From Candidatus Campbellbacteria bacterium (GTDB lineage: Bacteria; Patescibacteriota; Minisyncoccia; Phycocordibacterales; JAXHMZ01): DNA of 64,000 nucleotides. A program made the translations under genes and the position numbers. Below are positions 3,901 through 56,471 of this stretch, piece after piece. The notes beneath the pieces are model-generated. The model was not told the origin of the DNA. It made no database searches and saw only the letters and a list, made by a program, of their open reading frames with translations. The first letter of the stretch is position 1, and every line of letters begins with the position of its first letter. The stretch lies in contig JAXHMZ010000005.1 in NCBI GenBank assembly GCA_034521025.1, positions 126,796 to 190,795 of the forward strand, written 5' to 3'.

Positions 3901-6334
3901 ATGAGTAAAAAAAGGTTCAAAAAAAGGAATATTCTTATTGGCATTTTTGCCTTTGTAATGTTGGTTATATCCGGAGGTCTTCTCTGGGCGTCTACTCTTT
4001 CCATCCCTGACATTTCCGCCTTTGAAACCAGAAAGGTGGAAGAGTCTACAAAGATATACGATCGCACAGGCGAAGTGCTTCTTTATGACGCACACGCGAA
4101 TATCCGCCGCACGGTAATAGACTCTGATGAGATGTCAGACAACATCCGCGGGGCAACCTTAGCCATTGAAGATCAAGATTTCTATAATCACATTGGGATT
4201 GATTTTTCCGCTATTTTTCGCGCTACTTTCGCTAATATAAAAGCAGGCGAGTACGCTCAGGGTGGATCTACAATAACCCAGCAAGTTATCAAGAACTCTC
4301 TTTTAACAAACGAGAAGACCTTGTCCCGTAAAGTCAAGGAGTGGATACTGGCTATAAAGCTAGAGAATGAATACTCTAAGGACGAAATACTAACACTCTA
4401 TTTGAATGAGATACCCTACGGCGGAACGATCTATGGCGCAGAAGAAGCGGCCCAAGCGTTCTTTGATAAACCAGCTAAGGATCTTGGTATAGCTGAATCA
4501 GCTTATTTGGCCTCGCTTCCGCAAGCACCCACTTATTTTCTAAATAACCCCGAGAAACTAGAAGCTCGGAAAAACGCTGTGTTGTCAAAGATGTTGAAAG
4601 GTAACTACATTTCTAGAGAAGAATACGAGGAAGCAAAAGAGGAAGACGTGGACTTTAACGGAATTGCCGGAACTGGTATAAAAGCTCCGCATTTTGTTTT
4701 TTATATCCTAGAAAAACTAGAAACCGAATATGGTAAAGAATTAATACGCGAAGGCGGACTAGACATAATCACAACACTAGATTATGAACTACAGGAGAAA
4801 ATTCAGGAAAGAGTATATGAATACATAATAGACCACCAAGAACAGTTTGATATGGAAAACGCTTCTGTTGTGGTTACAGATCCAAATAGCGGAGAAATAA
4901 TAGTAATGGTTGGCTCGCGTAAATATGACGACGAAAACATAGACGGCGCCGTAAATGTCGCCACCCGCTCTCGCCAGCCCGGCTCTACTTTTAAGCCGTT
5001 TGCCTATGCTACTGCCTTTAAAAACGGATATACGCCTGAATCAGTAATATTTCAACCTGCGCACACAGTTTTCAACGAACTGTGAGCCGCACGAAACAAC
5101 AAGAAAAGAATCTCCTTGTTTTTCCCCCGAAAACTATAACTTTAGCTACCCCGGACCGGTAACTATGCGCCAAGCTCTAGCCGCCTCACAAAACATTCCG
5201 GCAGTAAAAACACTATATTTAGCCGGAGCACGTAATACCATCAAAACCGCCAACGATATGGGGATCTCTACTCTAAATAACGACGACGCGGATCTCTCGC
5301 TCGTTTTAGGATCCGGCGAGGTTAAACTTCTTGAAATGACAAACGCTTACGGAGTTTTCGCCAACGGAGGCATCTACTATGAACCAACCGGAATTTTAGA
5401 GATAGAAGATAGAAGTGGAGAAAAAATAGAAGAGTTTGAAAAAGACAGCAAACGAGTATTGCCCGAACAGAACGCTTTACAAATAACAGATATACTTTCT
5501 GACAGAGGCTTGCGTGTAGGAACCTTCGGACCTGGTACGGCTCTCGATATCCCGAATCCTAATATAGCGGTAAAAACCGGTACGACCAATAATTATCGAG
5601 ATGTCTGGACTATAGGATACAACACAGATATGTCACTCGGTATTTGGGGTGGTAACAACAACAACGATCCTATCGTGAGAAGAGTTTCCACTTATGTCAT
5701 TTCTCCTTTGTGGCGAGAAATTCTTGATATTGTAACTGAAAAGTACCCGGGTGAGACTTTCAGAGAACCAAATAAGGATTATTCAGATATCAATAAACCT
5801 ATATTGACCGGATCTTATACCGGAGGAATTATAAGCGGCGGAAGGATCATCGATCGCGGAGTACATTCCATTCTCCATTGGACAAACCCTTCTAATCCTC
5901 GCGGTCCGGTACCTTCTAACCCTAACTCGATCTCTCAATACAGCTACTGGGAATATCCGGTGAGCGTGTGGAGTAGAGGACAGATTATCGATACCGAAGA
6001 TGAGGAAATAGAAATTGAGGAAGATGAAAACGAAGAGGAGGAAGATGAAAATAATAGTAATGAAGACGTAGAAGCCAACTTCGAGGTTGAGGGACTTAAC
6101 AGCACTTATGATATAGGAGACGAAATGGAATTTGTCGTAGATTCAAGATCTGTTGATATAGAAAAAGCAGAAGCTGTTTTTGGAGAGGAGAGTAATGTGG
6201 ATTCTACAGAGGCTTTCAGATTCACCTTTGAAACTTATTATCTTGACGAGGGCGTTTACTCCCTAGAAATCACCGTGTACGACCACGACGATCAACAAAT
6301 AATGAGAAGTTTTGAAGTAGAAATAGAAGACTAG
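3901..6334 (+). CDS. Class-A penicillin-binding protein (PBP1A-type: TM anchor, GT51 transglycosylase, transpeptidase, acidic C-terminal extension). Split between the SxxK and SxN motifs by a frameshift in about 5050-5140.
   Basis: GT51 motifs (ATLAIEDQDFYNHIGID, GGSTITQQ). STFK (SxxK) lies in ORF 3901..5085. FSPENYNFSYPGPVTMRQALAASQNIPAV (SxN) and KTGTTNN (KTG) lie in ORF 5165..6334, and the SxN segment is readable upstream of its ATG in frame 2. Confidence 0.85.
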
Positions 6335-7941: not shown

Positions 7942-9288
7942 CTAAAGCATAGCGCGTATCTGTGACAGTTCATTGTATATCTCGGAGTTATTCTTTAACT
8001 CCTCTCGCACTCTGTCACAGGAATGAATAACGGTTGTATGGTCTCGACCTCCCAACTTTTGTCCAATCAACGGAAAAGAAATTTTAAAATCCTCTCTTAA
8101 TATGAACATTATCATTTGCCTCGGTCGCACAACCTCCTTTTTCCGTGTTTTCTCAAAGATAACCTTTTCATCAATGTTATAGAATTCCGAAATCGTTTTT
8201 ATAACATCTTTGATAGCGATCTGTTTTCTCGGTTTAACCGAGGTCTTGGTTATGGATTGCAATTCGGAAATATCCAAGTCTCTACCCTTCATTTCCGCCT
8301 GCATAATGACGGTATTGAGTATACCTTCGAGATCTCTAACATTTCCCTCTACGGCAGAGGCAAGGTGTTCTACAGATTCTCGAGAAAGCGAAAAATTAGA
8401 ATGCTTTGCTTTGGCTGTGATTATCGCTACTCGAGAATCATGATCTGGAGGAGGAATGTCTACGATCATTCCCGCGCCAAAGCGCGACTTTAGACGCTCT
8501 TCAAGGTTTTGTATGTAGTTCGGATGTTTATCGCTGGAGAATACTATTTGCTTATTTGCGTCATAAAGGGCGTTGAAAAGGTGGAACAATTCTTCTTGAG
8601 TTTTGTCTTTGTTTGATAGGAATTGTATGTCGTCCATTATCAAGACATCGTAGTCTCTGTACTTTTCCTTGAATGCGTTTACACGATTGACCTGGATAGA
8701 GTTTAGAAAATCAACAGCAAACTTTTCACTGGTCAGGTAGTAACATTTCTTTCCCGAATAGAGCTCCTTCATCTTGTTACCGATCGCTTGTATCAAGTGA
8801 GTTTTGCCGTGCCCCGTGTTTCCGTATATAAAGAGTGGGTTGTATGTGGTGCCGGGTTTTTTAATAACCGCCTGAGCCGCGGCGTACGCCAGTTCATTGA
8901 AAGGACCAACCACAAAGGAATCAAAGTCGTACCGAGGATTCAGATTGTCCTCTTTGTTTATATAAACATCCTCAAACGGCAACTCCCCTCCCCTTGGCTG
9001 TTCGCGAAATGTTTTCTGCTTCTGTGTTCTTGCCGGCTTGCCTATTACATACTCTACGTTGCGAACTTCTCCAGCTCTGTCTCGTACCGCTTTAAGTATT
9101 GTTTTGTGATATTTGTTAAAGAGCCAGTCGCGGACAAATTGATTCGGTACAGAAATGTAGATTATTCCATCTTCGTGTTTTTGTATGTGGGTATCTTTAA
9201 ACCAAGTGTTAAACGTTGCGCTCGAAACAGATAGTTCTATCTCCACGAGCACGCTATCCCAGAGCTCTTTAATGTTCATAGCAGGCAA
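7942..9288 (-). CDS. dnaA: Chromosomal replication initiator DnaA.
   Basis: Walker A GNTGHGKTHL, an AAA+ core and a C-terminal DNA-binding domain (...IGQKLGGRDHTTVIHSCDRV...). Confidence 0.95.
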   Translation of the reverse strand: MPAMNIKELWDSVLVEIELSVSSATFNTWFKDTHIQKHEDGIIYISVPNQFVRDWLFNKYHKTILKAVRDRAGEVRNVEYVIGKPARTQKQKTFREQPRGGELPFEDVYINKEDNLNPRYDFDSFVVGPFNELAYAAAQAVIKKPGTTYNPLFIYGNTGHGKTHLIQAIGNKMKELYSGKKCYYLTSEKFAVDFLNSIQVNRVNAFKEKYRDYDVLIMDDIQFLSNKDKTQEELFHLFNALYDANKQIVFSSDKHPNYIQNLEERLKSRFGAGMIVDIPPPDHDSRVAIITAKAKHSNFSLSRESVEHLASAVEGNVRDLEGILNTVIMQAEMKGRDLDISELQSITKTSVKPRKQIAIKDVIKTISEFYNIDEKVIFEKTRKKEVVRPRQMIMFILREDFKISFPLIGQKLGGRDHTTVIHSCDRVREELKNNSEIYNELSQIRAML

Positions 9289-16276: not shown

Positions 16277-18089
16277 TTATTGATCAAGTTTGTTTTTTGC
16301 TTCTTTGATGGCGAGAATCTGCGCGGGGTCTGAGGTAATTATTTGCTCTTCTGTATACGAGGCGATTATTTTGATGGCAACATGCTTGAGTCCGGCAAAG
16401 AATATTCCCTCTCCCACATCACTCTCCAGCAAAAGATACTTTTCTTCGTCGGTCAGGTTAAAGACTTCTTGCACGTGATCGATCGAGGTGGGAGATTGCT
16501 TCAAGAGTAATTGAATAGAAGAGTTGGTCAAAATTGGCAGACCGTATTCGGAGTTCAAGAAGTCGTCCACGTCCTGGGTTATAGTAGCCACGCCCAAATA
16601 GTACTTGCGACCTCGCTTAACCATACTGTATAGGAATGAAGCAGTGTCTTCGGAGCGCATCATCCACCATGCCTCATCAACTACCAAAAGACGTTTCTTG
16701 AGCTCGAAACGCACAGCGTTCCAGATGAAGTGCGTTATAAGGTACATCGCCATTGGCTTTAATTCGTCTTCCATGTCGCGTATTGAGAACACGATCAACC
16801 TTTGGTCTATATCTACGTTTGTAGGCTGGTTGATAAATTCTGACCACGAACCTTTGGTGTACTTAGAGAGTCTTTGTACGAGAGATTCAGTGCCCTCCAT
16901 TCCGCTCAAGAACCATCTCAAAATCAGACATAAGCGGTGGATCAATGTTAGAAAAGTCGGAATCGGGCGTTATGTCTTTTAGAGCGTATGTTTCGGTAAT
17001 GGCACGGTCGATAATAGCATCTTCTTCCGGCGTTAATCCGCCGAACATAATTCGAAATAAGCCGACCAATTGGATCGTGTTCGACCTGAGCACGTCTGCG
17101 GGGTCCTCGTCTTCTCGTACATCGGGTAAATCAAAAGGATTTATGTGGTGCTCGGAATTTAGTGAAATATTAAAATATCGCCCGCCGATAGCCGTAGCTA
17201 GTTGCTCATATTCACGTTCCGGGTCTATAACTATAACTTCGGTATCGAACATCAGAGTACGAAGTATCTCTAGCTTGGTAGCAAAAGACTTGCCGGCGCC
17301 TGATTTCGCGAAAGAAACCGAGTTGTAGTTCTCGAGTGAAAAACGGTCAAACAAGACCAGCGAGGAATTGTGCCGATTTATGCCGTGGAGGATGCCTTTG
17401 TCTGATGTTAAGTCGAAAGAAATGAAAGGGAAAATACTAGAGAGCGGAGACGTGTTCAGCTTAGAATAAACGTTAAGCTTGTCAGTTCCGAAAGGGAATA
17501 CGCTCATCAGGCCCTGTTCCTGCTGGAATATAGCCGGCTTGATATAAACCAACTTTGCTTCCAGTATGGACCGGATCTCACTTTCGAGCTTATCCAGCTC
17601 GTTTTGGTCTTTTCCGAAAATGGATACATAAAGCCCCACATCGAATAGCTTTTCTTGCGCCTGCTGGAGATCGTCACGAAGACTTTCAAGGTCGGCGAGC
17701 GCTGTATCGAGCATTGGACTACGCACAAGCCCTTTTTGCATACGGGAATTTATCTGAGACTGAACTTCAGCCACCTTTTTTTGAAATTGTCTTAATACCC
17801 GCTCGGTTGAAATTGGATGAACAACAATTGAAATATCGACAATTTTGTCCATATTTATGATCGGAGCGAACCAGCCTTCAGACAGGTATCGCGGATAAGA
17901 GATGACAAAGAAAGTTCGCACCAGCTTGTCTCCCAAGTGGATATCCTTAGGCGTAACCTTTAGGGCCGAAGGAGCGATCACATCCTTTACTTCGAGAGCG
18001 CTGCCCGACGCCATCTCGCCCGGCAAGAGCGATTCGATCGCAGACATCTTGTTTTCTTCTTGATTGTTTTCTTTTCCGAAAAGAGCCAT
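16277..18089 (-). CDS. VirB4/TraC/TrbE-family conjugation/T4SS ATPase. Split by a frameshift in the 16887-16945 overlap; total about 610 aa.
   Basis: Walker A FAKSGAGKSFATKLE in ORF 16887..18089. Walker B LLVVDEAWWMM in ORF 16277..16945. The ORFs overlap by 59 nt in different frames. Confidence 0.8.
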
Positions 18090-35797: not shown

Positions 35798-36765
35798 TTG
35801 CTATACTATAGGTATAAACGGCTTATGAATGCTTTAGAGACTTATAAACGAGAATTTCTCGAACATATTGAAATTGAAAAGGGGCGTTCTCTCAAAACGG
35901 TTGAGAATTACGACCGCTATCTAAATAGTTTTTTTGAATTTGCCAAAATATCTCAACCGGATCAGAAATTAACGAAGAATTAATTCGTCGTTTTCGTCTG
36001 CATTTGAACCGCAAGCGAGCTAACGCGGACGGAGATACTCTAAAGAAGAAAACGCAAAATTACTATTTGATCGCGCTCAGAAGTTTTCTGAAGTATTTAT
36101 TAAAAAGAGATATCTCTACTCTTTCCCCCGAAAAAATCGAACTAGCCAAAGTGTCCGACAGAAACCTTGACTTAATTACTCGCGAGGAGCTGAATAGGAT
36201 CTTAGCTGGTCCGGACACTGACAGTGAAAATAAAAACGAAAAATTGGCGGCGCTTCGTGATCGAGCTATTTTAGAAATGCTCTTTTCTACCGGATTGCGT
36301 GTCTCCGAGCTCTGTTCCCTTTCTAGAGAGATAGACTTAAGCCGAGAGGAGATGACCATTAGAGGAAAAGGAGATAAGGTGAGAATTGTTTTTATCTCGG
36401 AAGACGCGAAAGACGCTGTTCGTGCCTATCTGAAAGAGCGAGTAGATATAGACGAAGCCCTTTTTATTTCACACTCCAAGCGTGACATCAACAAAGACGG
36501 GAGCGACGTTGAAAGACACCTGACGCCGCGTTCAGTAGAAAGAATAGTAGAAAAATATGCTATTAAGGCCGGTATCTCAAAGAAAGTTACTCCTCATGTT
36601 ATACGGCATTCTTTCGCGACCGATCTTTTACAAAATGGAGCTGATATACGTTCTGTGCAGACCCTGCTTGGCCACGCTGATATCTCCACAACACAAGTTT
36701 ATACACATGTGTCGAACTCACATTTAAAAGAGGTCTATAAAAAGTATCACAACAAAAAGAATTAG
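35798..36765 (+). CDS. XerC/XerD-type tyrosine recombinase. Split (35798..35983 and 36004..36765) by a frameshift near 35955-35975.
   Basis: N-terminal SAM-like domain in ORF 1. ORF 2 carries the catalytic R...HxxR...Y set (LRVSEL, HVIRHSFAT, TQVYTHV). Its frame reads ...NEELIRRFRLHL upstream of the start. Confidence 0.8.
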
Positions 36766-39847: not shown

Positions 39848-39863
39848 TGTTTCATGTGAAACA
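39848..39863. promoter_or_regulatory. parS-like site (TGTTTCATGTGAAACA, one mismatch).
   Basis: 16-bp palindrome matching the parS consensus TGTTNCACGTGAAACA. Confidence 0.5.
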
Positions 39864-39895
39864 GATTTAAGGTTTCTCGGGAAACAAATATAATA

Positions 39896-41392
39896 CTATT
39901 TTACCCAGTATTTTTTGCGAATTTCTTTAATAGTAGCTTCGTCGTACTCCTCTTGGGTAGATTTCCCCTTTTTTCCTAATTCCTCTAGTTCTTTATTTGG
40001 TAATTTGAACAACTCTTCTGCCCGGTTTTTGAGATACTCTGCGATGTTTTTGTCGGGGTCATCAAGGACTTCTTCGAGGAGAGCGTGAAGGATATAGCCA
40101 ATATGAGGACCCGGTTTTGAATCTGTCAGTTTCATAATTTCACTGCCGTCAATTTTTAGCATATCTACGGATATTGGGTCTCGCAGTACTTCAGCGATCA
40201 TCGCCTCGTATTTTCTTAATCTATAAGGACTTTCTTTAGGTCTTCCGGTTCCGATCCTGTCGGCACGACGCAAGCTCAAAAGGTCTTCGACGTTCTCTTT
40301 CCCCACGTTTCTTACCATTCTTCTGACCGCGGAATATGATATTTGATCAGTATCCGTAAAAAACATATGCCATCGTACTAACTTTGTTACACGTGAAACG
40401 GTCTCTTTTGGATATTTTAAGCGTTCTAAGACAGTCTTTGTTACACGTGAACCAACCACGTCGTGGCCGTGAAATGCCCAATCTTTTTTCTTGTTAGACC
40501 ATTCTCGCGTATATGGCTTACCGATATCGTGAAAAATTGAAGCAAGTTTTACGTGAAACGGAAGATCTTTGTCAGCTGCATACTGAGCTGTGCGTAGCAA
40601 ATGCTCCCAGACGGTGAAGGCGTGCGCCTGATTTTGCTCTATTCCCACACTTTTCTCAAATTCGGGCAATATAACGTGCAATATTCCCAAACGTTCCATG
40701 AGAAACATACCAGTCATAGGGTTTTTTGAATCGATGATCTTGGAAAACTCATCTCTAATTCTCTCTTGAGCGATGTTTTTGAGCTCTTCTGTGTGGTTTT
40801 GAATGGCCTCTTGCGTAGAATTCTCAATAGAGAAGTCTAGAGTTGTAGCTAGGCGTACGGCACGCATTATTCTAAGCGCGTCTTCAGCGAATCTTTGACT
40901 CGGGTTTCCAACCGCTTTAATGGTTTGTGCCTTAAGGTCATTTTGTCCGTTGTAGGGGTCAACAAATGTTCCACGAGAAACGTCGGAAGGGTTATTTGCA
41001 CTTAGATCCGGGGATAATGCTATAGCATTAACTGTAAAGTCGCGTCTTTTCAGGTCATCATTAATGTTTTTCGTGAAACTAACCTGATCTGGCCTTCTTT
41101 TGTCGCTATAACCGCTTTCTTCGCGGTATGTAGTAACTTCAATTGTTTGGTGACGAGGGTCTTCTGCGTCTTCAAAAACAACACCAACTGTTCCAAATTC
41201 GTTTTCGTAAAAACTGTGTTCAAACAAAGACAATATTTCTTCGGGAGTAGCGTCAGTGGCGACGTCCCAATCGTCTGGCTCGCTTTCAAGGAGTATGTCG
41301 CGCACGCAACCACCCACAAAATATGCCTCAAAACCGGCTTGTTTGAGAGTTTTTACCGTATCCAGCGCTTCCTGAGGTATTTGTTGTGCCAT
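39896..41392 (-). CDS. cca: CCA-adding tRNA nucleotidyltransferase with a C-terminal HD domain.
   Basis: YFVGGCVRD...DWDVATDATPEE Pol-beta-type head. HD motif ...FHDIGKPYT. Confidence 0.85.
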   Translation of the reverse strand: MAQQIPQEALDTVKTLKQAGFEAYFVGGCVRDILLESEPDDWDVATDATPEEILSLFEHSFYENEFGTVGVVFEDAEDPRHQTIEVTTYREESGYSDKRRPDQVSFTKNINDDLKRRDFTVNAIALSPDLSANNPSDVSRGTFVDPYNGQNDLKAQTIKAVGNPSQRFAEDALRIMRAVRLATTLDFSIENSTQEAIQNHTEELKNIAQERIRDEFSKIIDSKNPMTGMFLMERLGILHVILPEFEKSVGIEQNQAHAFTVWEHLLRTAQYAADKDLPFHVKLASIFHDIGKPYTREWSNKKKDWAFHGHDVVGSRVTKTVLERLKYPKETVSRVTKLVRWHMFFTDTDQISYSAVRRMVRNVGKENVEDLLSLRRADRIGTGRPKESPYRLRKYEAMIAEVLRDPISVDMLKIDGSEIMKLTDSKPGPHIGYILHALLEEVLDDPDKNIAEYLKNRAEELFKLPNKELEELGKKGKSTQEEYDEATIKEIRKKYWVK

Positions 41393-41557
41393 TTATGCTT
41401 AATTGTATTACAGGTTGTGGTATTTATCTAACCAATTTAAGAAGTTTCGATTAGATAACTCTAATTTAAATGATTATGTTGTCAAATGGAGCTAATGTTT
41501 CAAATACGCCCATTTGCATTTATAATTCAGAGATATATACTGAGTTTCTGGAAAAAC

Positions 41558-41629
41558 GCTCCCGTGGTGAAATGGATATCACAACTGACTTCGGATCAGT
41601 TATTCTGGGTTCGAATCCTGGCGGGAGCA
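41558..41629 (+). tRNA. tRNA-Arg (anticodon TCG).
   Basis: Manual cloverleaf fold: acceptor GCTCCCG/CGGGAGC, D-arm GTGA/TCAC, anticodon loop CTTCGGA, T-arm CTGGG-TTCGAAT-CCTGG, discriminator A. Confidence 0.85.
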
Positions 41630-41846
41630 CACGAATGAAGTGAGTGGGCCTCCGAGAAAGCTCATTTCTGAGCTTTCGTCCGGGAGGACTGTTTGAGAAG
41701 GTTGCCAGATGGTTTGGAGAGCTTGCGAGGCAAACCATCGACAACCTGTACTGCTCCTGTAAGGAGGAGTATATCGCGCGGAACGTAGTGAGCACGATAC
41801 GAGACCTGTACTGATCATGTAATGATCGAATCCTGGCGGGAGCACA
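41630..41846 (+). mobile_element. About 200-nt insert ending in a direct repeat (41826..41846) of the tRNA-Arg T-loop-to-3'-end (41611..41631). Contains a module homologous to those at the Gly-GCC and Pro loci.
   Basis: 21-nt exact repeat TCGAATCCTGGCGGGAGCACA. Internal ...GAGTATATCGCGCGGAACGTAGTGAGCACGATACGAGACCTGTACTGA... is about 75% identical to the other modules. Confidence 0.5.
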
Positions 41847-41948
41847 AAGATCAAACAAAACTAATTTGTGGTTGAAACTAAATTTTGGGTTTGATTAACT
41901 TGTAGAGTTCCGTGAGAAACATTTTTCTTCCAGAAGGAAATCATAATT

Positions 41949-41966
41949 ATGTTTCACGTGAAACAT
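41949..41966. promoter_or_regulatory. Perfect parS site (ATGTTTCACGTGAAACAT), just upstream of the tRNA-Gly promoter (TTGCTT-16nt-TATAAT).
   Basis: 18-bp perfect palindrome containing the 16-bp consensus parS. Confidence 0.65.
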
Positions 41967-42019
41967 AATATCAAAATTTGCTTCAATTCGAGCAACTGGT
42001 ATAATCTCCTAAGCCATTT

Positions 42020-42090
42020 GCGAGTATAGTTTAGTGGTAGAACGCATCCTTGCCAAGGATGAGACGGGAGTTCGATTCTCCCTACTCGCA
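42020..42090 (+). tRNA. tRNA-Gly (anticodon GCC).
   Basis: Acceptor GCGAGTA/TACTCGC, anticodon loop TTGCCAA, T-arm GGGAG-TTCGATT-CTCCC. Confidence 0.85.
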
Positions 42091-42274
42091 CCGTAATCCA
42101 AAAACCTCTTTGCATCTTGCGAGTCACACTACGCTGGGGAATGGCGAGAGCGAGCACATTTCTGTGCTCGCGCCGGCGGGGAATCGAAAAGATCGAGTAT
42201 ATCGTACGGAGCGACAGCGAGTACGATACGAGATCTCTACCGAATCTGTAAGATTCGATTCTCCCTACTCGCAC
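42091..42274 (+). mobile_element. Insert with a conserved ~72-nt module (42182..42253), ending in a 21-nt direct repeat (42254..42274) of the tRNA-Gly T-loop-to-3'-end.
   Basis: Module GAATCGAAAAGATCGAGTATATCGTACGGAGCGACAGCGAGTACGATACGAGATCTCTACCGAATCTGTAAG is nearly identical (3 mismatches) to the one at 44170..44243. Confidence 0.55.
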
Positions 42275-42421
42275 ACTAGAAAAATCCCTTTCTGCGGTGA
42301 TTTTACTTACTCTAGCGAGTAGACTTGTTGCACTGCGAGAGACTTAGGAGTTTGATTTAAAGCCCATATCGCTTGATTTTACAGCGTGCCTAGGATAATG
42401 TGGCTTTTGAGTTAGGTCTGG

Positions 42422-43324
42422 TTGTCAGATCTAAGCTGTACTTTCTCAGCCATAGAAAAGGAGAAGAAAATGAGTCGAAATTTTAGGGAGATGATCGGTC
42501 GGCATTGGTCTAGAGGGAATTTTGTTTGTGTCGGGCTTGATACTGACTTTGACAAAATTCCAAAGGTCGCCAAGGGCAACAAGAGCCATTATTCTCCGGA
42601 AGACATCTCCAGTGTTGTCGTCAGTTACAACAAAAGAATAATTGAGGCAACGCGAGACTTGGTCTGCGCTTACAAGCTAAACACTGCTTTCTACGAGAAA
42701 CACGGTGCTAATGGCTTGGACGCGCTTCGTCAGACGATCGACTACATCCTCGAAACCGCCGCAGACGTTCCCGTGATCCTAGACGCCAAGCGGGCTGACA
42801 TTGGCAATAGTAACGAGGCCTATGCAGAAGCAGCTTTTGCTTCTCTACGGGCAGACGCGATCACTGTTCATCCATACCTTGGTCATGCGGCACTTGAGCC
42901 ATTTCTGGCACAAAGAAACAAAGGGATCTTTGTTTTGTGTCGCACCTCTAACTCGGGAGCTGGTGAGTTTCAGGACCTCTCCGTAGGGAACAATGAGCCA
43001 CTATATCTCCGAGTTGCTAGAAACGTAGCTGACATTTGGAACAAGTACGGAAACTGCGCTCTGGTTGTCGGCGCTACTTTCCCCAAGGAGTTGGGCGAAA
43101 TTAGAAAAACCGTCGGGAATCTGCCGATACTCATTCCGGGTATTGGAGTGCAAGGGGGCGACTTGAAGGAGGTCGTAAATGCTGGCAAAGATAGCCGCGG
43201 TATGGGAATGATAATTAACTCATCACGCGGTATCATCTTTGCCTCAGAGGGCGACAATTACGCAGAAGCTGCGAGAGTAGAAACCAAAAGACTCCAAGGC
43301 AGGATCACTAGATACCTACTCTGA
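42422..43324 (+). CDS. pyrF: Orotidine-5'-phosphate decarboxylase (type 2). True start probably the internal Met (MSRNFREMIG...).
   Basis: ...VCVGLDTD... and ...VILDAKRADIGNS... motifs. Confidence 0.75.
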   Translation: MSDLSCTFSAIEKEKKMSRNFREMIGRHWSRGNFVCVGLDTDFDKIPKVAKGNKSHYSPEDISSVVVSYNKRIIEATRDLVCAYKLNTAFYEKHGANGLDALRQTIDYILETAADVPVILDAKRADIGNSNEAYAEAAFASLRADAITVHPYLGHAALEPFLAQRNKGIFVLCRTSNSGAGEFQDLSVGNNEPLYLRVARNVADIWNKYGNCALVVGATFPKELGEIRKTVGNLPILIPGIGVQGGDLKEVVNAGKDSRGMGMIINSSRGIIFASEGDNYAEAARVETKRLQGRITRYLL

Positions 43325-43340
43325 AGCTCTCACTTAAAAG

Positions 43341-43378
43341 ACCAGAGCCGCTGTGACTCAGAATAGCGGCTCTTTTTT
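43341..43378 (+). terminator. Rho-independent terminator after pyrF.
   Basis: AGAGCCGCT...AGCGGCTCT hairpin followed by TTTTTTG. Confidence 0.6.
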
Positions 43379-43407
43379 GTTGCAAAACTGTATTTTGTGT
43401 GTAAATA

Positions 43408-43437
43408 AATGCTTCAATCTATAGATTGAAGCATTTA
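43408..43437. repeat. Second copy of the 30-bp palindromic element AAATGCTTCAATCTATAGATTGAAGCATTT.
   Basis: Identical to 30860..30889. Confidence 0.5.
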
Positions 43438-43453
43438 AGTGATCGTTTTCAGT

Positions 43454-43469
43454 GTTTCACGTGACACAT
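43454..43469. promoter_or_regulatory. parS-like site (TGTTTCACGTGACACA, one mismatch). A perfect DnaA box (TGTGGATAA) lies 47 nt downstream at 43516..43524.
   Basis: Direct reading. Confidence 0.5.
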
Positions 43470-43609
43470 TTTTAACGCATTTAAGCCATATTTATAGGAC
43501 ATTTTGTGTATAACTGTGGATAAGTCTGTGAATATGTGTATAAAAGACATTTCTTTTTTGTCTCTAATGTCTTTTCTAAAACGCTTAACCACGCTATTCT
43601 AAATGGACA

Positions 43610-44001
43610 ATGCATCCATTAACGCATCTGGATATAGGACAAATCGGGGAAAATGCCGCGCTTCGTCATTATGAGAAAAGAGGCTTCAGATCAATACAGC
43701 AGAACTATCAAAAACCTTTTGGGGAGATAGATCTAATTGTAGAAAAAGATAAAAAATTGGTTTTTGTGGAGGTGAAAGAGTGTTTCATGTAAAACTTATT
43801 CGGATGTTTCACGTGACACACATAATCCCGCAGAGAATATTCACTTTAAAAAACGAAAAAGACTGCGCAAGACCATTGTCAGTTTTCTGTCGGAGATTCG
43901 ACGACGGTTTCTCGGAGTGGCGTTTTGACGTTGCATTGGTGCTAGTAAACACTAAAGTAAGACACTCTAGGGTGGAGATCATTGAAGATGTTGTGCTATA
44001 A
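43610..44001 (+). pseudogene. yraN: YraN/UPF0102-family endonuclease disrupted by a short insert carrying parS-like sites (43790..43820) and at least one further frameshift.
   Basis: N-terminal part ...GEIDLIVEKDKKLVFVEVKE then stops. The middle (ENIHFKKRKRLRKTIVSFL) and the C-terminus (RFDVALVLV...) lie in two other frames. Confidence 0.55.
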
Positions 44002-44061
44002 ACAACGACAGATTGAATTTTTTATCTACCGGTGATACTATCAGTTGGCGTAAACGCAATA

Positions 44062-44134
44062 CGGAGTGTGGTGTAACGGCTAACATTCCTGGTTTGGGAC
44101 CAGGCGATTCCGGGTTCGAATCCCGGCGCTCCGA
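44062..44134 (+). tRNA. tRNA-Pro (anticodon TGG), with a C1:G72 pair.
   Basis: Acceptor CGGAGTG/CGCTCCG, anticodon loop TTTGGGA, T-arm CCGGG-TTCGAAT-CCCGG. Confidence 0.85.
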
Positions 44135-44264
44135 AAGAAGTAAGGATAAGAAAAGCAGGGCTTTTCCAGGGATTCGAAAAGATCGAGTATATCGCACGGA
44201 GCGACAGCGAGTACGATACGAGATCTGTACCGAATCTGTAAGATTCGAATCCCGGCGCTCCGAA
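44135..44264 (+). mobile_element. Insert with the conserved ~72-nt module (44170..44243), ending in a 21-nt direct repeat (44244..44264) of the tRNA-Pro T-loop-to-3'-end.
   Basis: TTCGAATCCCGGCGCTCCGAA is repeated exactly. The module is near-identical to that at 42182..42253. Confidence 0.55.
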
Positions 44265-44363
44265 CGAATCCTCGCTTTTTCTTGACAAACACATGGTTTA
44301 ACAATACAACTAACGCTGGAGACGGTGGGTGTTCTTTCTAAAGAGGTTTGGAGGCTTGTCTAA

Positions 44364-44798
44364 ATGTTAGGTAAAGAAGTTCTCTGTATCGCGCATAGAG
44401 ATGATACGCTTGCTTGTTTAGCGATCGAGGCATTGGAAGCGTATAAAGGGAAAACAGATATACACTTCAAAACAGAGTTAGCTGGGAGTGTGAGTATCTC
44501 TGAGACCCCGTGTGTAGTTTTTGTTACCTTGAGCGAAAGAGAAATAACCGACAATGGTAGAACCACCACAGGGAGTCTGCGATTTAGGGGCAAATATCTC
44601 AAGATATTGGGAGGCAAGGAGATTGAGTTGTATAAGCCCGCATGGGCTCCGAATGCCTATATGGTGGTTGCTCTGAAAAACGAGCTAAAGACAGTGAAAG
44701 GGGACCCAAAAGAATCTGAGGCGTTTGGGCAAGCCATCATACACGTTTTTGAAGGAGGTAAGGGTAGAAAAATAGTTCGAGCTCAAAAAGATACCTAA
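44364..44798 (+). CDS. Hypothetical protein.
   Basis: 144-aa ORF with no recognisable motif. Confidence 0.35.
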   Translation: MLGKEVLCIAHRDDTLACLAIEALEAYKGKTDIHFKTELAGSVSISETPCVVFVTLSEREITDNGRTTTGSLRFRGKYLKILGGKEIELYKPAWAPNAYMVVALKNELKTVKGDPKESEAFGQAIIHVFEGGKGRKIVRAQKDT

Positions 44799-44847
44799 AC
44801 TTCTTGGACAAACTCCAGGTGGCTTGCATAGCCACCTTTAAATACAA

Positions 44848-44950
44848 ATGTCTTTTACAAATATTCTAAAGGACATATAATACAAGAAGTGTCCTTTAGG
44901 GCATCAACTATAAAGGACAAAATACTTATAAAGGACATAAAGGACAAATA
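44848..44950. repeat. Array of about six TAAAGGACA-type repeats in both orientations, ending at the mscS start codon.
   Basis: CTAAAGGACAT, GTGTCCTTTAGGG, TATAAAGGACAAAA, TATAAAGGACATAAAGGACAAAT. Confidence 0.5.
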
Positions 44951-44953
44951 ACA

Positions 44954-46027
44954 ATGAATTTAGATACAGTTATATTGGGAAATAATATAGAAGAATATTT
45001 ACTAGCAGTGGCCGCTACAATAGTGGTTTACGCTATTTTGTGGGTATTCAAACAAATTACTTTTTCGTTTTTAAAAAAGAGAAAAGATAAACTGGGTGGC
45101 GACGTTGGTTACGCCTTATTCGAAATGGCTTCCTACGTGAAGTTTTGGTTCTATCTTGCTATCTCCTTGTATGTTGGAACACAATTTCTAGAATTATCGG
45201 CGAGGGCTTCGTTGGTGTTTGAAAGGGTCTTTTTAGTGGCATTGGTAGCACAAGCAATTATATTGGGCTCAATTTTCTTGCGTTTTCTTCTCCGACAAAA
45301 GTACGCCAAAGGAAAGAGCGCCACTATCCAGTCGGCAGTTGAGATCCTATCTACGGTGGCAGTAGCGCTATTGTGGATACTCGGTGTCCTATTTGTCCTT
45401 TCTAATTTTGGTGTAGAAATTACTTCTCTTATCGCCGGCCTTGGTGTTGGAGGTTTGGCTGTAGCTCTCGCTCTGCAGGGAGTATTGGGTGATCTTTTCA
45501 GCTCTCTTGCTATCTACTTTGATAAGCCGTTCGAGGTGGGGGACTTTATTGAGTACGCAGGAAATTTCGGTACCGTGAAGCATATAGGAATGAAGACCTC
45601 AAGAATTGAGCTTCTTAGCGGGGAAGAGTTTGTAGTGACCAACCGAGAACTTTCTGATGGAAAAATTAGAAACTTTACGCGCTTGGAAGAATATAGAGAG
45701 TCTATGAACTTTGGTGTTACATATGAAACGTCTCTTGATAAGCTCGAGCGTATACCAGAGATCGTTCAGAGTATAGTTGAGTCCATTGATAAGGCGCGCT
45801 TCGATAGAACTCATCTGAGCGGGTTTGATGAATCAGCGCTTACTTTTACGACAATTTACTTCGTAGAGGATAATAATTATGACGTATATATGGACACCAA
45901 GCAAAAAATAAACCTTGAGGTATTGCGCGCTTTCGAAAAAGAGGGAATTGAAATTGCTTACCCAACTAGAACGCTTCACGTACAAAAGGAGTCTCCCTAC
46001 ACAAATTCTCAAGCTACTGATTCCTAG
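44954..46027 (+). CDS. mscS: Small-conductance mechanosensitive channel (MscS family).
   Basis: TM3-like GLGVGGLAVALALQGVLGDLFS. Beta-domain ...PFEVGDFIE..GNFGTVKHIGMKTSRIE.... Confidence 0.8.
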   Translation: MNLDTVILGNNIEEYLLAVAATIVVYAILWVFKQITFSFLKKRKDKLGGDVGYALFEMASYVKFWFYLAISLYVGTQFLELSARASLVFERVFLVALVAQAIILGSIFLRFLLRQKYAKGKSATIQSAVEILSTVAVALLWILGVLFVLSNFGVEITSLIAGLGVGGLAVALALQGVLGDLFSSLAIYFDKPFEVGDFIEYAGNFGTVKHIGMKTSRIELLSGEEFVVTNRELSDGKIRNFTRLEEYRESMNFGVTYETSLDKLERIPEIVQSIVESIDKARFDRTHLSGFDESALTFTTIYFVEDNNYDVYMDTKQKINLEVLRAFEKEGIEIAYPTRTLHVQKESPYTNSQATDS

Positions 46028-46318
46028 TTGGTAAATGTTATACTACGGATTATGAGTAACGATCAAGAATACAAATACAACGGCAACGAATATGAAACTC
46101 CGGAAGAGGCGGAGAGAAGGCGAGCGGCCGAAAAAGAGGCTCACCTTAATAGTCCCGACGAGATTTTAGAGGAAGCGGATTCTCTGGAAGAAAGCCAGAC
46201 CGTCCAAGGAGAGGTTGGCGATAACTTAACCGAACAATTTCCCACGAAAGATCAAACAGCAGGGGAGAGTGCGACAGGCGGAAAGGACGATGAAGAGTTC
46301 GGTTCAAGTGATAAATAG
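46028..46318 (+). CDS. Small acidic hypothetical protein.
   Basis: ORF only. Confidence 0.3.
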   Translation: MVNVILRIMSNDQEYKYNGNEYETPEEAERRRAAEKEAHLNSPDEILEEADSLEESQTVQGEVGDNLTEQFPTKDQTAGESATGGKDDEEFGSSDK

Positions 46319-46416
46319 ACGCGCTTTTGACTCGACCAAGGATTGATAAAGAGGTTTTGTTTTGCTACGATATCGTAGTATCTTAGCCACGACATGGTGG
46401 AAAACGGAGGTCGTTT

Positions 46417-46487
46417 GCGGGTATAGTTTAGTGGTAGAATGTCTGCCTTCCAAGCAGAAGACGAGAGTTCGATTCTCTCTACCCGCA
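46417..46487 (+). tRNA. tRNA-Gly (anticodon TCC).
   Basis: Acceptor GCGGGTA/TACCCGC, anticodon loop CTTCCAA, T-arm GAGAG-TTCGATT-CTCTC. Confidence 0.8.
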
Positions 46488-46542
46488 CATTACAAATTAC
46501 TGAGACATTTCCGTCAGGAAATGTACTCGTGGACGATTCTCT
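46488..46542 (+). repeat. 35-nt hairpin-containing spacer followed by a 19-nt direct repeat (46524..46542) of the tRNA-Gly(TCC) T-loop-to-3'-end.
   Basis: CGATTCTCTCTACCCGCAC is repeated. Spacer hairpin GACATTTCC-GTCA-GGAAATGT. Confidence 0.5.
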
Positions 46543-46631
46543 CTACCCGCACCTTATAGAAAATATTCTCTTTAGCCGATTTTCTCGCAATAAGCGGGTA
46601 TAGAGCGAGCAAACTGCAATAGCACACAAAA

Positions 46632-55303: not shown

Positions 55304-55332
55304 GTAGTTATCCCCAGTGAACTTCATGTTCA

Positions 55333-55925
55333 TTGGCAATTTATATTATAATTAAAGTGTATATGAGTGTTTTCAAACTACTTTCGATATTGGTCTCAGC
55401 TGTAGTCGCTTTTCTATCTGTTGTCGCGTTGTTTTTGATGTTTCTAATGAGAAGGATCCCCCAACCGAAGAAACTTCCCCTCAAGTTTGGAGCGTGGATC
55501 TCAGTGAAGCCGGCTTTGGCGTATTGACCTTTACGCCAAACGACGACCTAAGGTCTGATCCCGACGTGGACTTTCTGGGGATCTAACGAAGGTGGAGGTT
55601 CTTGCGCAGTACAATACAACCCCGATCTCCACGGACAAACACTCGAAGGGTTCACTCGATATGACTTCATCGATTCAATTCTCGTGTGTGCCTTGGAGCG
55701 CGAGGAAAACGCGGAGCTGCTCGAGAGGATTGATAACGCTACAGAAAGCAACTTCGGTTCTTTCTATGACGCTTGGCTTGGGCTGTATGACAGAGAATGT
55801 GACACTTCCTTCTCTCGTCTTGGGTGGCCGAACCCTGAAGCGAATGAAGGCCTGGAATGTGTTCCTGGCTTGGAAGAGGGCTTGAGCGAAGTCTAAGTAG
55901 TTATCCCCAGTGAACTTTATGTTCA
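55333..55925 (+). pseudogene. Array unit 2, frameshifted.
   Basis: T5 versus T6 homopolymer difference in the signal-peptide region relative to unit 3, and TAACGAAGG versus TACGAAGG later. The downstream domain is otherwise intact in another frame. Confidence 0.55.
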
Positions 55926-55955
55926 TTGGGGATTTATATTATAATTAAAGTGTAT

Positions 55956-56471
55956 ATGAGTGTTTTCAAACTACTTTCTTTTTTATTGGTCTCAGCTGTA
56001 GTCGCTTTTCTATTTGTTGTCGCGTTGTTTTTTGATGTTTCTAATGAGAAGGATCCCCCAACCGAAGAAACTTCCCCTCAAGTTTGGAGCGTGGATCTCA
56101 GTGAAGCCGGCTTTGGCGTATTGACCTTTACGCCAAACGACGACCTAAGGTCTGATCCCGACGTGGACTTTCTGGGGATCTACGAAGGTGGAGGTTCTTG
56201 CGCAGTACAATACAACCCCGATCTCCACGGACAAACACTCGAAGGGTTCACTCGATATGACTTCATCGATTCAATTCTCGTGTGTGCCTTGGAGCGCGAG
56301 GAAAACGCGGAGCTGCTCGAGAGGATTGATAACGCTACAGAAAGCAACTTCGGTTCTTTCTATGACGCTTGGCTTGGGCTGTATGACAGAGAATGTGACA
56401 CTTCCTTCTCTCGTCTTGGGTGGCCGAACCCTGAAGCGAATGGAGGCCTGGAACGTGTTCCTGGCTTGTGA
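55956..56471 (+). CDS. Array unit 3, intact: secreted protein with a C-type-lectin-like signature (about 170 aa from Met11 of the ORF).
   Basis: Signal peptide MSVFKLLSFLLVSAVVAFLF. Motifs WLGLYDRECDTSFSRLGWPNPEAN and ...EREENAELLERIDNATESNFGSFYDA. Confidence 0.55.
   Translation: MSVFKLLSFLLVSAVVAFLFVVALFFDVSNEKDPPTEETSPQVWSVDLSEAGFGVLTFTPNDDLRSDPDVDFLGIYEGGGSCAVQYNPDLHGQTLEGFTRYDFIDSILVCALEREENAELLERIDNATESNFGSFYDAWLGLYDRECDTSFSRLGWPNPEANGGLERVPGL

Follow-up and report, generated by a model that had tools for sequence, protein, structure and literature searches.

Integron attC cassettes and CTX-type elements combine an inverted and a direct target-like site with a foldable spacer, regenerate their target and form arrays, and a unit may carry a gene. 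Target-primed insertion, as displayed by short interspersed nuclear elements (SINEs) and elements without long terminal repeats (non-LTR elements), is known in eukaryotes. Few mobile elements are recognised in Patescibacteria (the Candidate Phyla Radiation, CPR), whose genomes are tiny. Mycobacteriophage Ms6 uses a 26-base core located in the T-loop region of a tRNA-Ala gene (PMC1762012). SegB of phage T4 recognises the sequence GGTTCRANTCC and cuts at a variable distance from it, often just past the end of the tRNA (PMC2330249), and it drives tandem amplification (PMC13096335). The tRNA fragments that integrating elements leave behind are well known, and they mislead automated tRNA annotation (PMC9897764). 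Here we analyse a 64-kb stretch of DNA, hereafter the window, from a metagenome-assembled genome (MAG) of a Campbellbacteria member (Paceibacteria/CPR). All tRNA genes of the window are followed by a small element that is bordered on its far side by a copy of the 3' part of the tRNA gene itself, and elements of the same design were found behind tRNA genes in related bacteria.

tRNA genes in the window were called with ARAGORN and Rfam, and protein families were assigned by Pfam scans. Exactly four tRNA genes are present, all on the + strand, and behind each of the four, at a distance of 45-196 nucleotides (nt), lies an exact 19-21-nt copy of the 3' part of that gene (Table 1). The copies start in the T-loop, at tRNA position 54, 55 or 56, and end 1-2 nt past the discriminator; the chance of a 19-nt match within 200 nt is ~1e-9. 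An earlier note on this DNA, based on its letters alone, had reported that each tRNA is trailed by a repeat of its T-loop-to-3'-end region, that the tRNA is intact with the duplicated segment on the far side of an insert, and that three of the loci share a conserved module. Our results are in agreement with all three statements. The host tRNA remains intact, since its part from the T-loop onward is present twice. The modules of the Gly-GCC and Pro loci are 95% identical over 83 nt (42179-42261 versus 44169-44251), and the version at the Arg locus is 65-79% identical to these two. Two sub-motifs of the module each occur at these three sites of the window alone, while 0.00-0.01 occurrences are expected by chance. 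The insert behind tRNA-Gly(TCC) belongs to another core family (M3, see below), a point that the earlier note had missed. Elsewhere, its 16-mer ATTTCCGTCAGGAAAT (46507-46522) was found at the corresponding site of the first tRNA-Arg element in L142-L148 (L-prefixed names are labels of the related loci or contigs compared) and nowhere else, and the end of the insert resembles the M3 ends ...GACTCGTGAC. The Gly-TCC insert is a 5'-truncated copy that holds the 3'-terminal part of an M3-type core.

Another feature that had gone unnoticed is a 10-14-nt inverted copy of the T-loop plus the 3' strand of the T-stem, which is present within the elements and which we name the guide. A full element is built of a variable leader with a hairpin, followed by the guide, a structured core and the direct tRNA copy; guide and copy pair with each other, closing the fold. 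The guide corresponds exactly to the reverse complement of tRNA positions 54-65 (+/-2) and stops at T54; among 22 listed guide matches the next base complements G53 in a single case. A match between the guide and the adjoining tRNA was found in at least 11 independent loci, never upstream of a tRNA. The cores of the Gly-GCC and Pro elements differ at 2 of 65 positions, and their guides differ exactly where the T-loops of the two tRNAs differ. At least three unrelated cores share this plan: M1, which forms a three-way junction, M3, which ends in ...TTAGTGA-N-TCGTGAC, and M4, which is short. The elements are non-coding and about 45-290 nt in size, or ~1 kb with cargo. Their 3' ends are conserved, and their 5' parts are unrelated (Gly-GCC versus Pro), mosaic (Arg) or truncated (Gly-TCC).

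Single-sequence folding, RNAalifold applied to six copies, and pair counting agree that M1 is a three-way junction with helices P1 to P4. P1 is the closing helix, in which the first 10-13 nt of the duplicated segment pair with the guide located 65-100 nt upstream, and it encloses P2, P3 and P4. The conserved junction reads GAGTATA / CGA / CT(C/G)TAC. The stem of P4 differs among the copies (GAATC/GATTC, GATCA/TGATC, CCCC/GGGG, TCCA/TGGA and CTCC/GGAG), its TGTAA loop is invariant, and a conserved GTAC precedes it. In an alignment of 14 distinct M1 sequences 89% of the cells pair, and compensatory changes were observed in 24 of the 29 pairs and in all four helices. None of 500 shuffles reached this pair count, and slid controls reached a maximum of 6-10 pairs. 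Fitting the 14-sequence alignment to the model biases it in favour of the structure; the slid controls and the outcome of RNAalifold, obtained independently, nevertheless argue against an artefact. In addition, covariance model R1, built from six M1 copies, recovered members outside its seed. The hairpin that the earlier note had predicted from the module (TATCGTAC-N13-GTACGATA) is present and corresponds to helix P3. Its proposal that the module is an arm-type integrase-binding region was not borne out, since what is conserved is a fold with compensatory changes in its four helices.

Rfam searches of the window and five related loci matched tRNAs only, and left the modules unmatched at the gathering score and at E<=10 / E<=1. 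Two structural candidates were rejected. On inspection, the strand order and sequence of the junction do not fit a hammerhead-like three-way junction on either strand. An acceptor-stem-like outer helix, as would be expected for a tRNA minihelix mimic, was seen at Gly-GCC and L121-2 only and is therefore not general. Scans for intrinsic-terminator-like sites found none that separates a tRNA from its element, and minus-strand promoters were not detected at the elements. The latter result and a tandem G.A motif weakly favour a + strand transcript, produced by read-through from the tRNA promoter.

Table 1. Coordinates of the tRNA genes, their 3'-end copies and the parts of the elements in the window
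Feature	Position	Strand	Description and basis
tRNA-Arg(TCG)	41558-41630	+	ARAGORN, Rfam
Arg copy pair	41611-41631 = 41826-41846	+	21 nt, 100% identical
Arg copy 2	41826-41846	+	tRNA-Arg positions 55-73 plus CA
Arg composite insert	41632-41825	+	sequence, repeat search, covariance model
Arg insert, left half			leader (CGAATGAAGTGAG...), hairpin GAGAAAGCTCA-TTTC-TGAGCTTTC, M3-like stretch
Arg insert, extra hairpin	41747-41766	+	CTGTACTG-CTCC-TGTAA-GGAG
Arg insert, right half	41767-41825	+	M1 core without guide and without P2 5' strand
R1 match at Arg	41727-41845		M1 covariance model, 88.8 bits
tRNA-Gly(GCC)	42020-42092	+	ARAGORN, Rfam
Gly-GCC copy pair	42071-42091 = 42254-42274	+	21 nt, exact
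Gly-GCC copy 2	42254-42274	+	tRNA positions 54-73 plus C; first 10-12 nt are the P1 3' strand
Gly-GCC leader	42092-42177	+	locus-specific, unrelated to Pro leader
Gly-GCC leader hairpin	42150-42171	+	GCGAGCACA-TTTC-TGTGCTCGC; sequence, fold
Gly-GCC guide	42178-42188	+	GGGGAATCGAA, inverted copy of T-loop plus T-stem 3' strand (TTCGATTCTCCC); P1 5' strand
Gly-GCC M1 core	42189-42253	+	alignments with pair counts
Gly-GCC core helices	P2 42190-94/42232-36; P3 42200-07/42221-28; P4 42242-46/42252-56		P4 loop TGTAA
R1 match at Gly-GCC	42150-42274	+	112 bits
tRNA-Pro(TGG)	44062-44134	+	ARAGORN, Rfam
Pro copy pair	44115-44135 = 44244-44264	+	21 nt, exact
Pro copy 2	44244-44264	+	tRNA-Pro positions 54-73 plus A
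Pro short leader	44136-44168	+	hairpin GAAAAGC-AGG-GCTTTTC; sequence, fold
Pro guide	44169-44178	+	GGGATTCGAA, perfect complement of TTCGAATCCC in tRNA-Pro
Pro M1 core	44179-44243	+	R1, 106 bits
tRNA-Gly(TCC)	46417-46488	+	ARAGORN, Rfam
Gly-TCC copy pair	46470-46488 = 46534-46552	+	19 nt, exact
Gly-TCC copy 2	46534-46552	+	tRNA positions 56-73 plus C
Gly-TCC insert	46489-46533	+	45 nt, without guide; hairpin ACATTTCC-GTCA-GGAAATGT, end ...ACTCGTGGA

Related loci were collected along several routes. A scan of a genome collection with a 15-base module pattern yielded 120 matches, mostly due to chance, of which L006 and L015 alone were genuine. A pattern scan of metagenomes yielded a single match, L121, and further loci (L130, L131 and L141-L148) were reached by walking out from neighbouring proteins. 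The resulting sample contains ~20 independent elements from ~8 genomes, part of which were found by searching with the module itself. In L015 (Paceibacteria) tRNA-Leu is followed by two identical tandem 131-nt units, and in L006 (Nomurabacteria) tRNA-Ile is followed by a full module with a downstream copy that is cut to 7 nt. In L121 two different elements are located in series behind tRNA-Arg, the second of which has a leader that resembles the one of the Arg insert of the window. Elements with cores M3 and M4, constructed on the same plan, are present behind tRNA-Ser (two isoacceptors), Glu, Phe, Arg (two isoacceptors) and Lys in L130 and L131, and behind tRNA-Arg (one or two elements), Ser and Lys in L141-L148.

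The distribution of the elements is bimodal. In loci of carrier genomes a copy was found at 14/20 tRNAs and a guide at 11/20, and both were found at 0/12 in element-free Paceibacteria loci and at 0/12 in unrelated control loci. The module is tied to tRNA 3' ends, as the earlier note had proposed: the covariance-model matches lie behind tRNA genes in 8/8 and 15/15 cases, and every match is located within 250 nt downstream of a same-strand tRNA, except the one at L142 8088-8210, which has a degenerate tRNA-end-like sequence upstream.

The following results strongly indicate that the elements are insertions. Independent assemblies from NCBI, ENA, JGI and Logan show this architecture again, and it is therefore not an assembly artefact, a possibility that the earlier note had raised together with that of finding empty sites in relatives. 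Such empty sites were indeed found. In L123, from a relative with 77% identity in the adjacent NrnA, an identical tRNA-Leu leads directly into the native flank (CGAGTAAAACGAGT...) and nrnA; each L015 unit repeats the end of tRNA-Leu plus 14 nt of native flank. tRNA-Lys genes that are identical or differ by 1-2 bases are empty in L139/L140 and filled in L143/L145. The tRNA-Arg beside the gene for the CCA-adding enzyme is empty in L122, and the tRNA-Arg upstream of pyrF is empty in L133, L134, L136 and L138. In L142 two near-identical units, one base apart, flank a segment of 933 nt that encodes a 227-residue protein of unknown family and ends in degenerate tRNA-end-like sequence, so that extra DNA can travel with a unit. 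Finally, regions L130 9576-10010 and L131 5262-5696 are identical at 434/435 positions from T55 of tRNA-Arg on and unrelated upstream, on two contigs that encode an identical pyrF. At this breakpoint L130 contains tRNA-Arg-CCT plus an element, and L131 an intact tRNA-Arg-GCG. Since the identity begins exactly at T55, the T-loop copy served as a recombination breakpoint. Together, the empty sites, the tandem arrays, the copy with cargo and the synteny breakpoint argue that the elements are gained and lost as insertions and are neither artefacts nor a fixed processing signal.

The order of genes in L142 7198-9713, found also in L144, is an HNH gene (157 residues), tRNA-Ser, element, the open reading frame (ORF) of 227 residues, the second near-identical element, and a gene for an HTH-SocA/Panacea antitoxin-like protein. 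This region is a small island built around the elements. JGI contig L125 (1-631), which like L015 comes from the Lake Mendota series and is identical to it over the shared part of nrnA, starts inside nrnA beside the tandem-unit site, and this start would fit an assembly break at element repeats. As regards the tRNA 3' flanks in the window, L006, L130 and L131, CA and not CCA follows the discriminator directly in 12/15 of the ARAGORN-called tRNAs; in element-bearing genomes this is also the case at tRNAs without an element.

The two ends of the duplicated block behave differently. Its left end always lies in the T-loop, at position 56 in 5/6 of the M3 elements and at positions 54-58 for M1, with two decayed cases at 60 and 62. 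The length of the block ranges from 13 to ~73 nt, and its right end is mostly located at +1 or +2. The right end lies at +14 in L015, at +37 behind tRNA-Phe of L130, where the duplication takes in a terminator hairpin, and at +56 in L142, where it extends over the leader and the larger part of the guide that belong to a resident element. Partial elements in L141 and L142 are cut 2-3 bases before the end of the guide and adjoin native flank, indicating that breaks also fall in the inverted T-loop. In L006, L121 and L130-Ser it is the outermost copy that is decaying, which fits the entry of new units beside the tRNA body.

The earlier note had drawn attention to a frameshifted XerD-like gene. 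This tyrosine recombinase gene is present at 35827-36765, with a single-base frameshift near 35975 and 5 kb from the elements; it is an ordinary-looking chromosomal gene, and no link between it and elements was seen in other genomes. No integrase gene is located beside the elements in L130, L131 and L141-L145, and none is linked to them in ~20 loci. In L142, the element-bearing tRNA-Ser is preceded, at a distance of 15 nt, by a gene for an HNH endonuclease (PF01844, 30.5 bits), and in L144, too, this gene lies directly before tRNA-Ser. A scan of a viral collection with three patterns gave no genuine match, and the covariance model found nothing on the pattern matches tested; there is thus no sign of a phage carrier. 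TnpB/IscB guide RNAs, IS200/IS605, IS110 bridge RNAs, casposons, retrons and group I/II introns were rejected as candidates because these families are absent from the Pfam scans of the window. To our knowledge, none of these systems gives a duplication of variable length from the T-loop to the 3' end.

The explanation that we favour, and to which we assign an about even chance of being correct, is that these are small non-autonomous elements, mobilised in trans, which are inserted behind tRNA genes in some Paceibacteria by a break and templated copy-in. The specific steps are held with less confidence than trans-mobilisation in general. A trans-acting enzyme that reads the conserved DNA of the T-arm would introduce a single-strand break in the T-loop, at a point between positions 53 and 58. 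A second break would occur at a variable point downstream, usually right past the tRNA end and sometimes past the terminator, or alternatively inside the inverted T-loop of a resident element. A new copy of the element would then be synthesised in from an RNA or DNA template, with the conserved 3' hairpin serving as recognition handle and the tRNA-like tail and/or the guide annealing to the broken target, and gap filling would duplicate positions 54 to +n. A precedent for a nuclease that reads the T-arm is SegB of phage T4 (PMC2330249), and the HNH gene of L142 adjoins an element-bearing tRNA. The elements themselves lack a promoter and would be transcribed together with the tRNA gene, from the promoter of the latter. 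We favour copy-in over classical attP x attB recombination because the 3' junction invariably lies in the T-loop, the right end of the duplication is variable, the 5' ends are ragged, mosaic or truncated, and cargo is carried. A more specific version, which we regard as doubtful, is that the elements are guided by nucleic acid, such that the guide and/or the tRNA-like tail pairs with the opened T-arm and thereby chooses the site, while the element makes use of tRNA transcription and is copied in through an RNA intermediate. If true, this would be a bacterial, tRNA-specific, programmable SINE-like system, whose target could be changed by 1-2 substitutions, as between the Gly-GCC and Pro copies.

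Several points weigh against insertion by break and copy-in. A guide without a copy is present at tRNA-Arg of L131 and tRNA-Lys of L130, with the cut copy of L006 as a further case, and a copy with a degenerate guide only is present at tRNA-Phe and tRNA-Glu of L130. Since elements without either one exist, neither guide nor copy is strictly required in the resident state. With respect to strand and form of nucleic acid the evidence is even: 14 G.U versus 16 A.C cells were counted on the + strand, and the two strands have similar folding z-scores. Pfam scans of the 64-kb window revealed no reverse transcriptase, HUH, DDE, IS110, TnpB or integrase apart from the XerD-like gene, and the HNH gene of L142 has no homologue in the other element-bearing loci examined. 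A recombinase acting on the identity block would likewise leave direct repeats. Lastly, the sample, as described above, is small and was obtained in part with the module.

One such recombinase-based explanation was put forward in the earlier note, namely that these are miniature integrative elements, in which the identity block of the attP on a small circle corresponds to the T-loop-to-3'-end region and a tyrosine integrase acts in trans. We consider this unlikely. The geometry and the gain and loss of elements are as it predicts. Exactly like those of Ms6 (PMC1762012), the repeats extend from the T-loop over the 3' end of the tRNA, tandem arrays arise because the target is regenerated, the outermost copy decays as expected of a displaced native end, L130 and L131 have exchanged sequences between two tRNA-Arg genes exactly at the block, and the window contains the XerD-like gene. 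However, a core site resembling the T-stem 5' strand is missing from the left border of the duplicated T-loop: copy 2 is preceded there by the P4 hairpin / ..TAAGA (M1) or by ..GTGAC (M3), so that there is no C-O-C' core and there are no inverted core sites of an attP. Cores M1, M3 and M4 share tRNA-derived parts alone and hence have no common arm sites, and what is conserved in the module is a fold with covarying stems, not protein-binding repeats. An identity block of 13 to ~73 nt with a variable right end, variable or truncated 5' ends, and the lack of a linked integrase in ~20 loci, with the only one in the window frameshifted, are likewise left unexplained by attP x attB recombination.

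Folded single-strand recombination sites of the attC or CTX type would account for more of the layout, and both these and copy-in after staggered breaks fit it better than the classical integrase model. Here guide and copy, paired in single-stranded DNA, would form a duplex image of the T-loop and T-stem, a host recombinase would swap one strand between this image and the tRNA gene, and replication would complete the reaction. The inverted target, spacer and direct target at the right end of the unit, the regenerated target, the arrays and the one unit with an ORF all agree with this. So do a fold that is equally stable on both strands and tolerates G.T and A.C, the small number of recombinases besides Xer in these genomes, and the fact that the + strand of the window is the lagging-strand template if the origin is located at dnaA/dnaN (6.6-9.3 kb). 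On the other hand, P1 (10-13 bp) joins the guide to the T-loop plus the 3' strand of the T-stem, which is half a recombinase site and only part of a two-arm attC-like site. In addition, the crossover apparently falls at the helix's inner end, neither a duplication of variable length nor 5' truncation would be expected, no IntI-like gene turned up in the sequences examined, and there is no independent source of single-stranded copies; we therefore judge this possibility to be quite improbable. It is very unlikely, finally, that the elements are at heart a cis-acting RNA device of tRNA precursors, in which the guide pairs with either the upstream T-arm or the downstream copy and, in a riboswitch-like manner, controls or insulates the folding and processing of the tRNA, and which would have spread through duplication and gene conversion. 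A three-way junction that is closed by P1 and has invariant bases in its junction and loop does resemble an aptamer or protein-binding RNA, the absence of a terminator-like site between tRNA and element in our scan would permit such a role, the tandem G.A motif and a number of G.U pairs are compatible with RNA of the + strand, and the guide is still perfect where the copy has been lost (L006, L131). A regulator, though, would have no need for duplicated acceptor strand, discriminator and up to ~56 nt of flank, and it does not explain the patchy distribution with whole genomes that lack any element, identical tandem units, close relatives with empty sites, mosaic and truncated copies, and a copy with cargo.

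The elements of the window are surrounded by ordinary chromosomal genes (dnaA, dnaN, the gene for the CCA-adding enzyme, pyrF, and genes for MscS, RNase Y, ClpP, trigger factor and NusA), and a type IV secretion-like cluster is also present; the window encodes no transposase and no nuclease typical of known mobile elements. The host is a small-genome bacterium, and the nearest relatives of its PyrF outside its own Campbellbacteria MAG are just 66% identical. The PBP1-like (3901-6334) and VirB4/TraG-like (16277-18089) genes appear split; these and the frameshifted XerD-like gene are either real pseudogenes or indel errors of the MAG. A 16-nt palindrome, TGTTTCACGTGAAACA, occurs in six copies (with up to 2 mismatches) within 39848-43820, at 39848, 40385, 40439, 41950, 43453 and 43805, while 0.03 are expected by chance. 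An insert of ~45 nt (43779-43824) with two of these copies puts a stop codon into the YraN/UPF0102-like ORF at 43611-44001. This palindrome may represent a second, unrelated miniature element or a regulatory palindrome. A direct duplication of ~590 nt lies on the minus strand in 55330-56000, and both duplicates hold the same AT-rich block of ~100 nt (AAGTAGTTTGAAAACACTCATATACAC...GGGGATAACTACTT). In the related loci, the 5' end of a gene called as class-I aminoacyl-tRNA synthetase contains a tRNA-like sequence (L130 5034-5120; Rfam tRNA, 51 bits), which in the ARAGORN call is a Pro-TGG whose anticodon region carries a long insert. In two contigs of one population, L145 (5748-6878) and L146 (1142-2272), ruvA and rpsT are separated by a DDE (rve) transposase gene that is lacking in sister contigs L142-L144 and L147. 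At L126 7994-9544 a gene for a large serine recombinase overlaps tRNA-Leu-GAG (8002-8089). This may represent a conventional element integrated at a tRNA, in a genome without small elements.

Full-text literature searches yielded no description of such elements, in keeping with the impression of the earlier note that no such family had been described. What appears to be unseen in the literature is the joint occurrence of a miniature format, a fold that is conserved, an inverted T-arm segment that follows the sequence of the host tRNA, several interchangeable cores and, in some of the genomes, near-saturation of the tRNA genes. A family present at most tRNA genes of certain lineages would be a major overlooked part of the CPR mobilome. 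Its repeats are likely sites of assembly breaks (L125) and of rearrangement (L130/L131), and in annotation the elements could be mistaken for known tRNA fragments. Their design is unusual in that a built-in spare tRNA 3' end and a matching inverted segment close a conserved fold, and the enzyme that moves them must read the T-arm, the most conserved DNA motif in biology. The guide may either select the target or mask the spare 3' half, preventing it from disturbing the folding of the real tRNA. In the first case the element would be a compact programmable insertion device, and in the second a selfish element that has evolved to be harmless to an essential gene.

Compared with known systems, the elements share with miniature inverted-repeat transposable elements (MITEs) and cis-mobilisable elements (CIMEs) that they are small, non-coding, non-autonomous, present in multiple copies per genome and presumably moved in trans. 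They differ from these in that they have no terminal inverted repeats, their left ends being unrelated to their right ends, that the target duplication has no fixed length (13-73 nt), and that the content of the repeat follows the target. As in Ms6-class integration, the target is the T-loop, a replacement 3' segment keeps the tRNA functional, and direct repeats of ~20-26 nt flank the insert; unlike this class, there is no integrase, core-type inverted sites are lacking at the crossover, inserts measure 45-290 nt instead of kilobases, the length of the repeat varies, and the element holds an inverted copy of the target and a conserved fold. With attC- and CTX-type elements they have in common an inverted and a direct target copy around a foldable spacer, target regeneration, arrays and a gene-carrying unit, but their target is a tRNA gene and not attI or dif, their helix matches a recombinase site only in part, and their duplicated block is both long and of varying extent. 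What SegB mobilises, through homologous repair, is its own gene together with neighbouring tRNA genes, and small structured inserts consisting of guide plus copy are not known from it; the similarity lies in the use of T-arm DNA as target, in cutting at a variable distance near the 3' end of the tRNA, which triggers recombination and tandem amplification, and in the HNH gene that adjoins one element-bearing tRNA (L142). SINEs and non-LTR elements differ from the elements described here, which reside in bacterial hosts, have no A-tail and use a precise intragenic target that is repaired by duplication, in a 64-kb window without a reverse transcriptase. What they share with them is a structured and conserved 3' end, ragged 5' ends, target duplications of variable length, carried upstream sequence and, presumably, dependence on a tRNA promoter.

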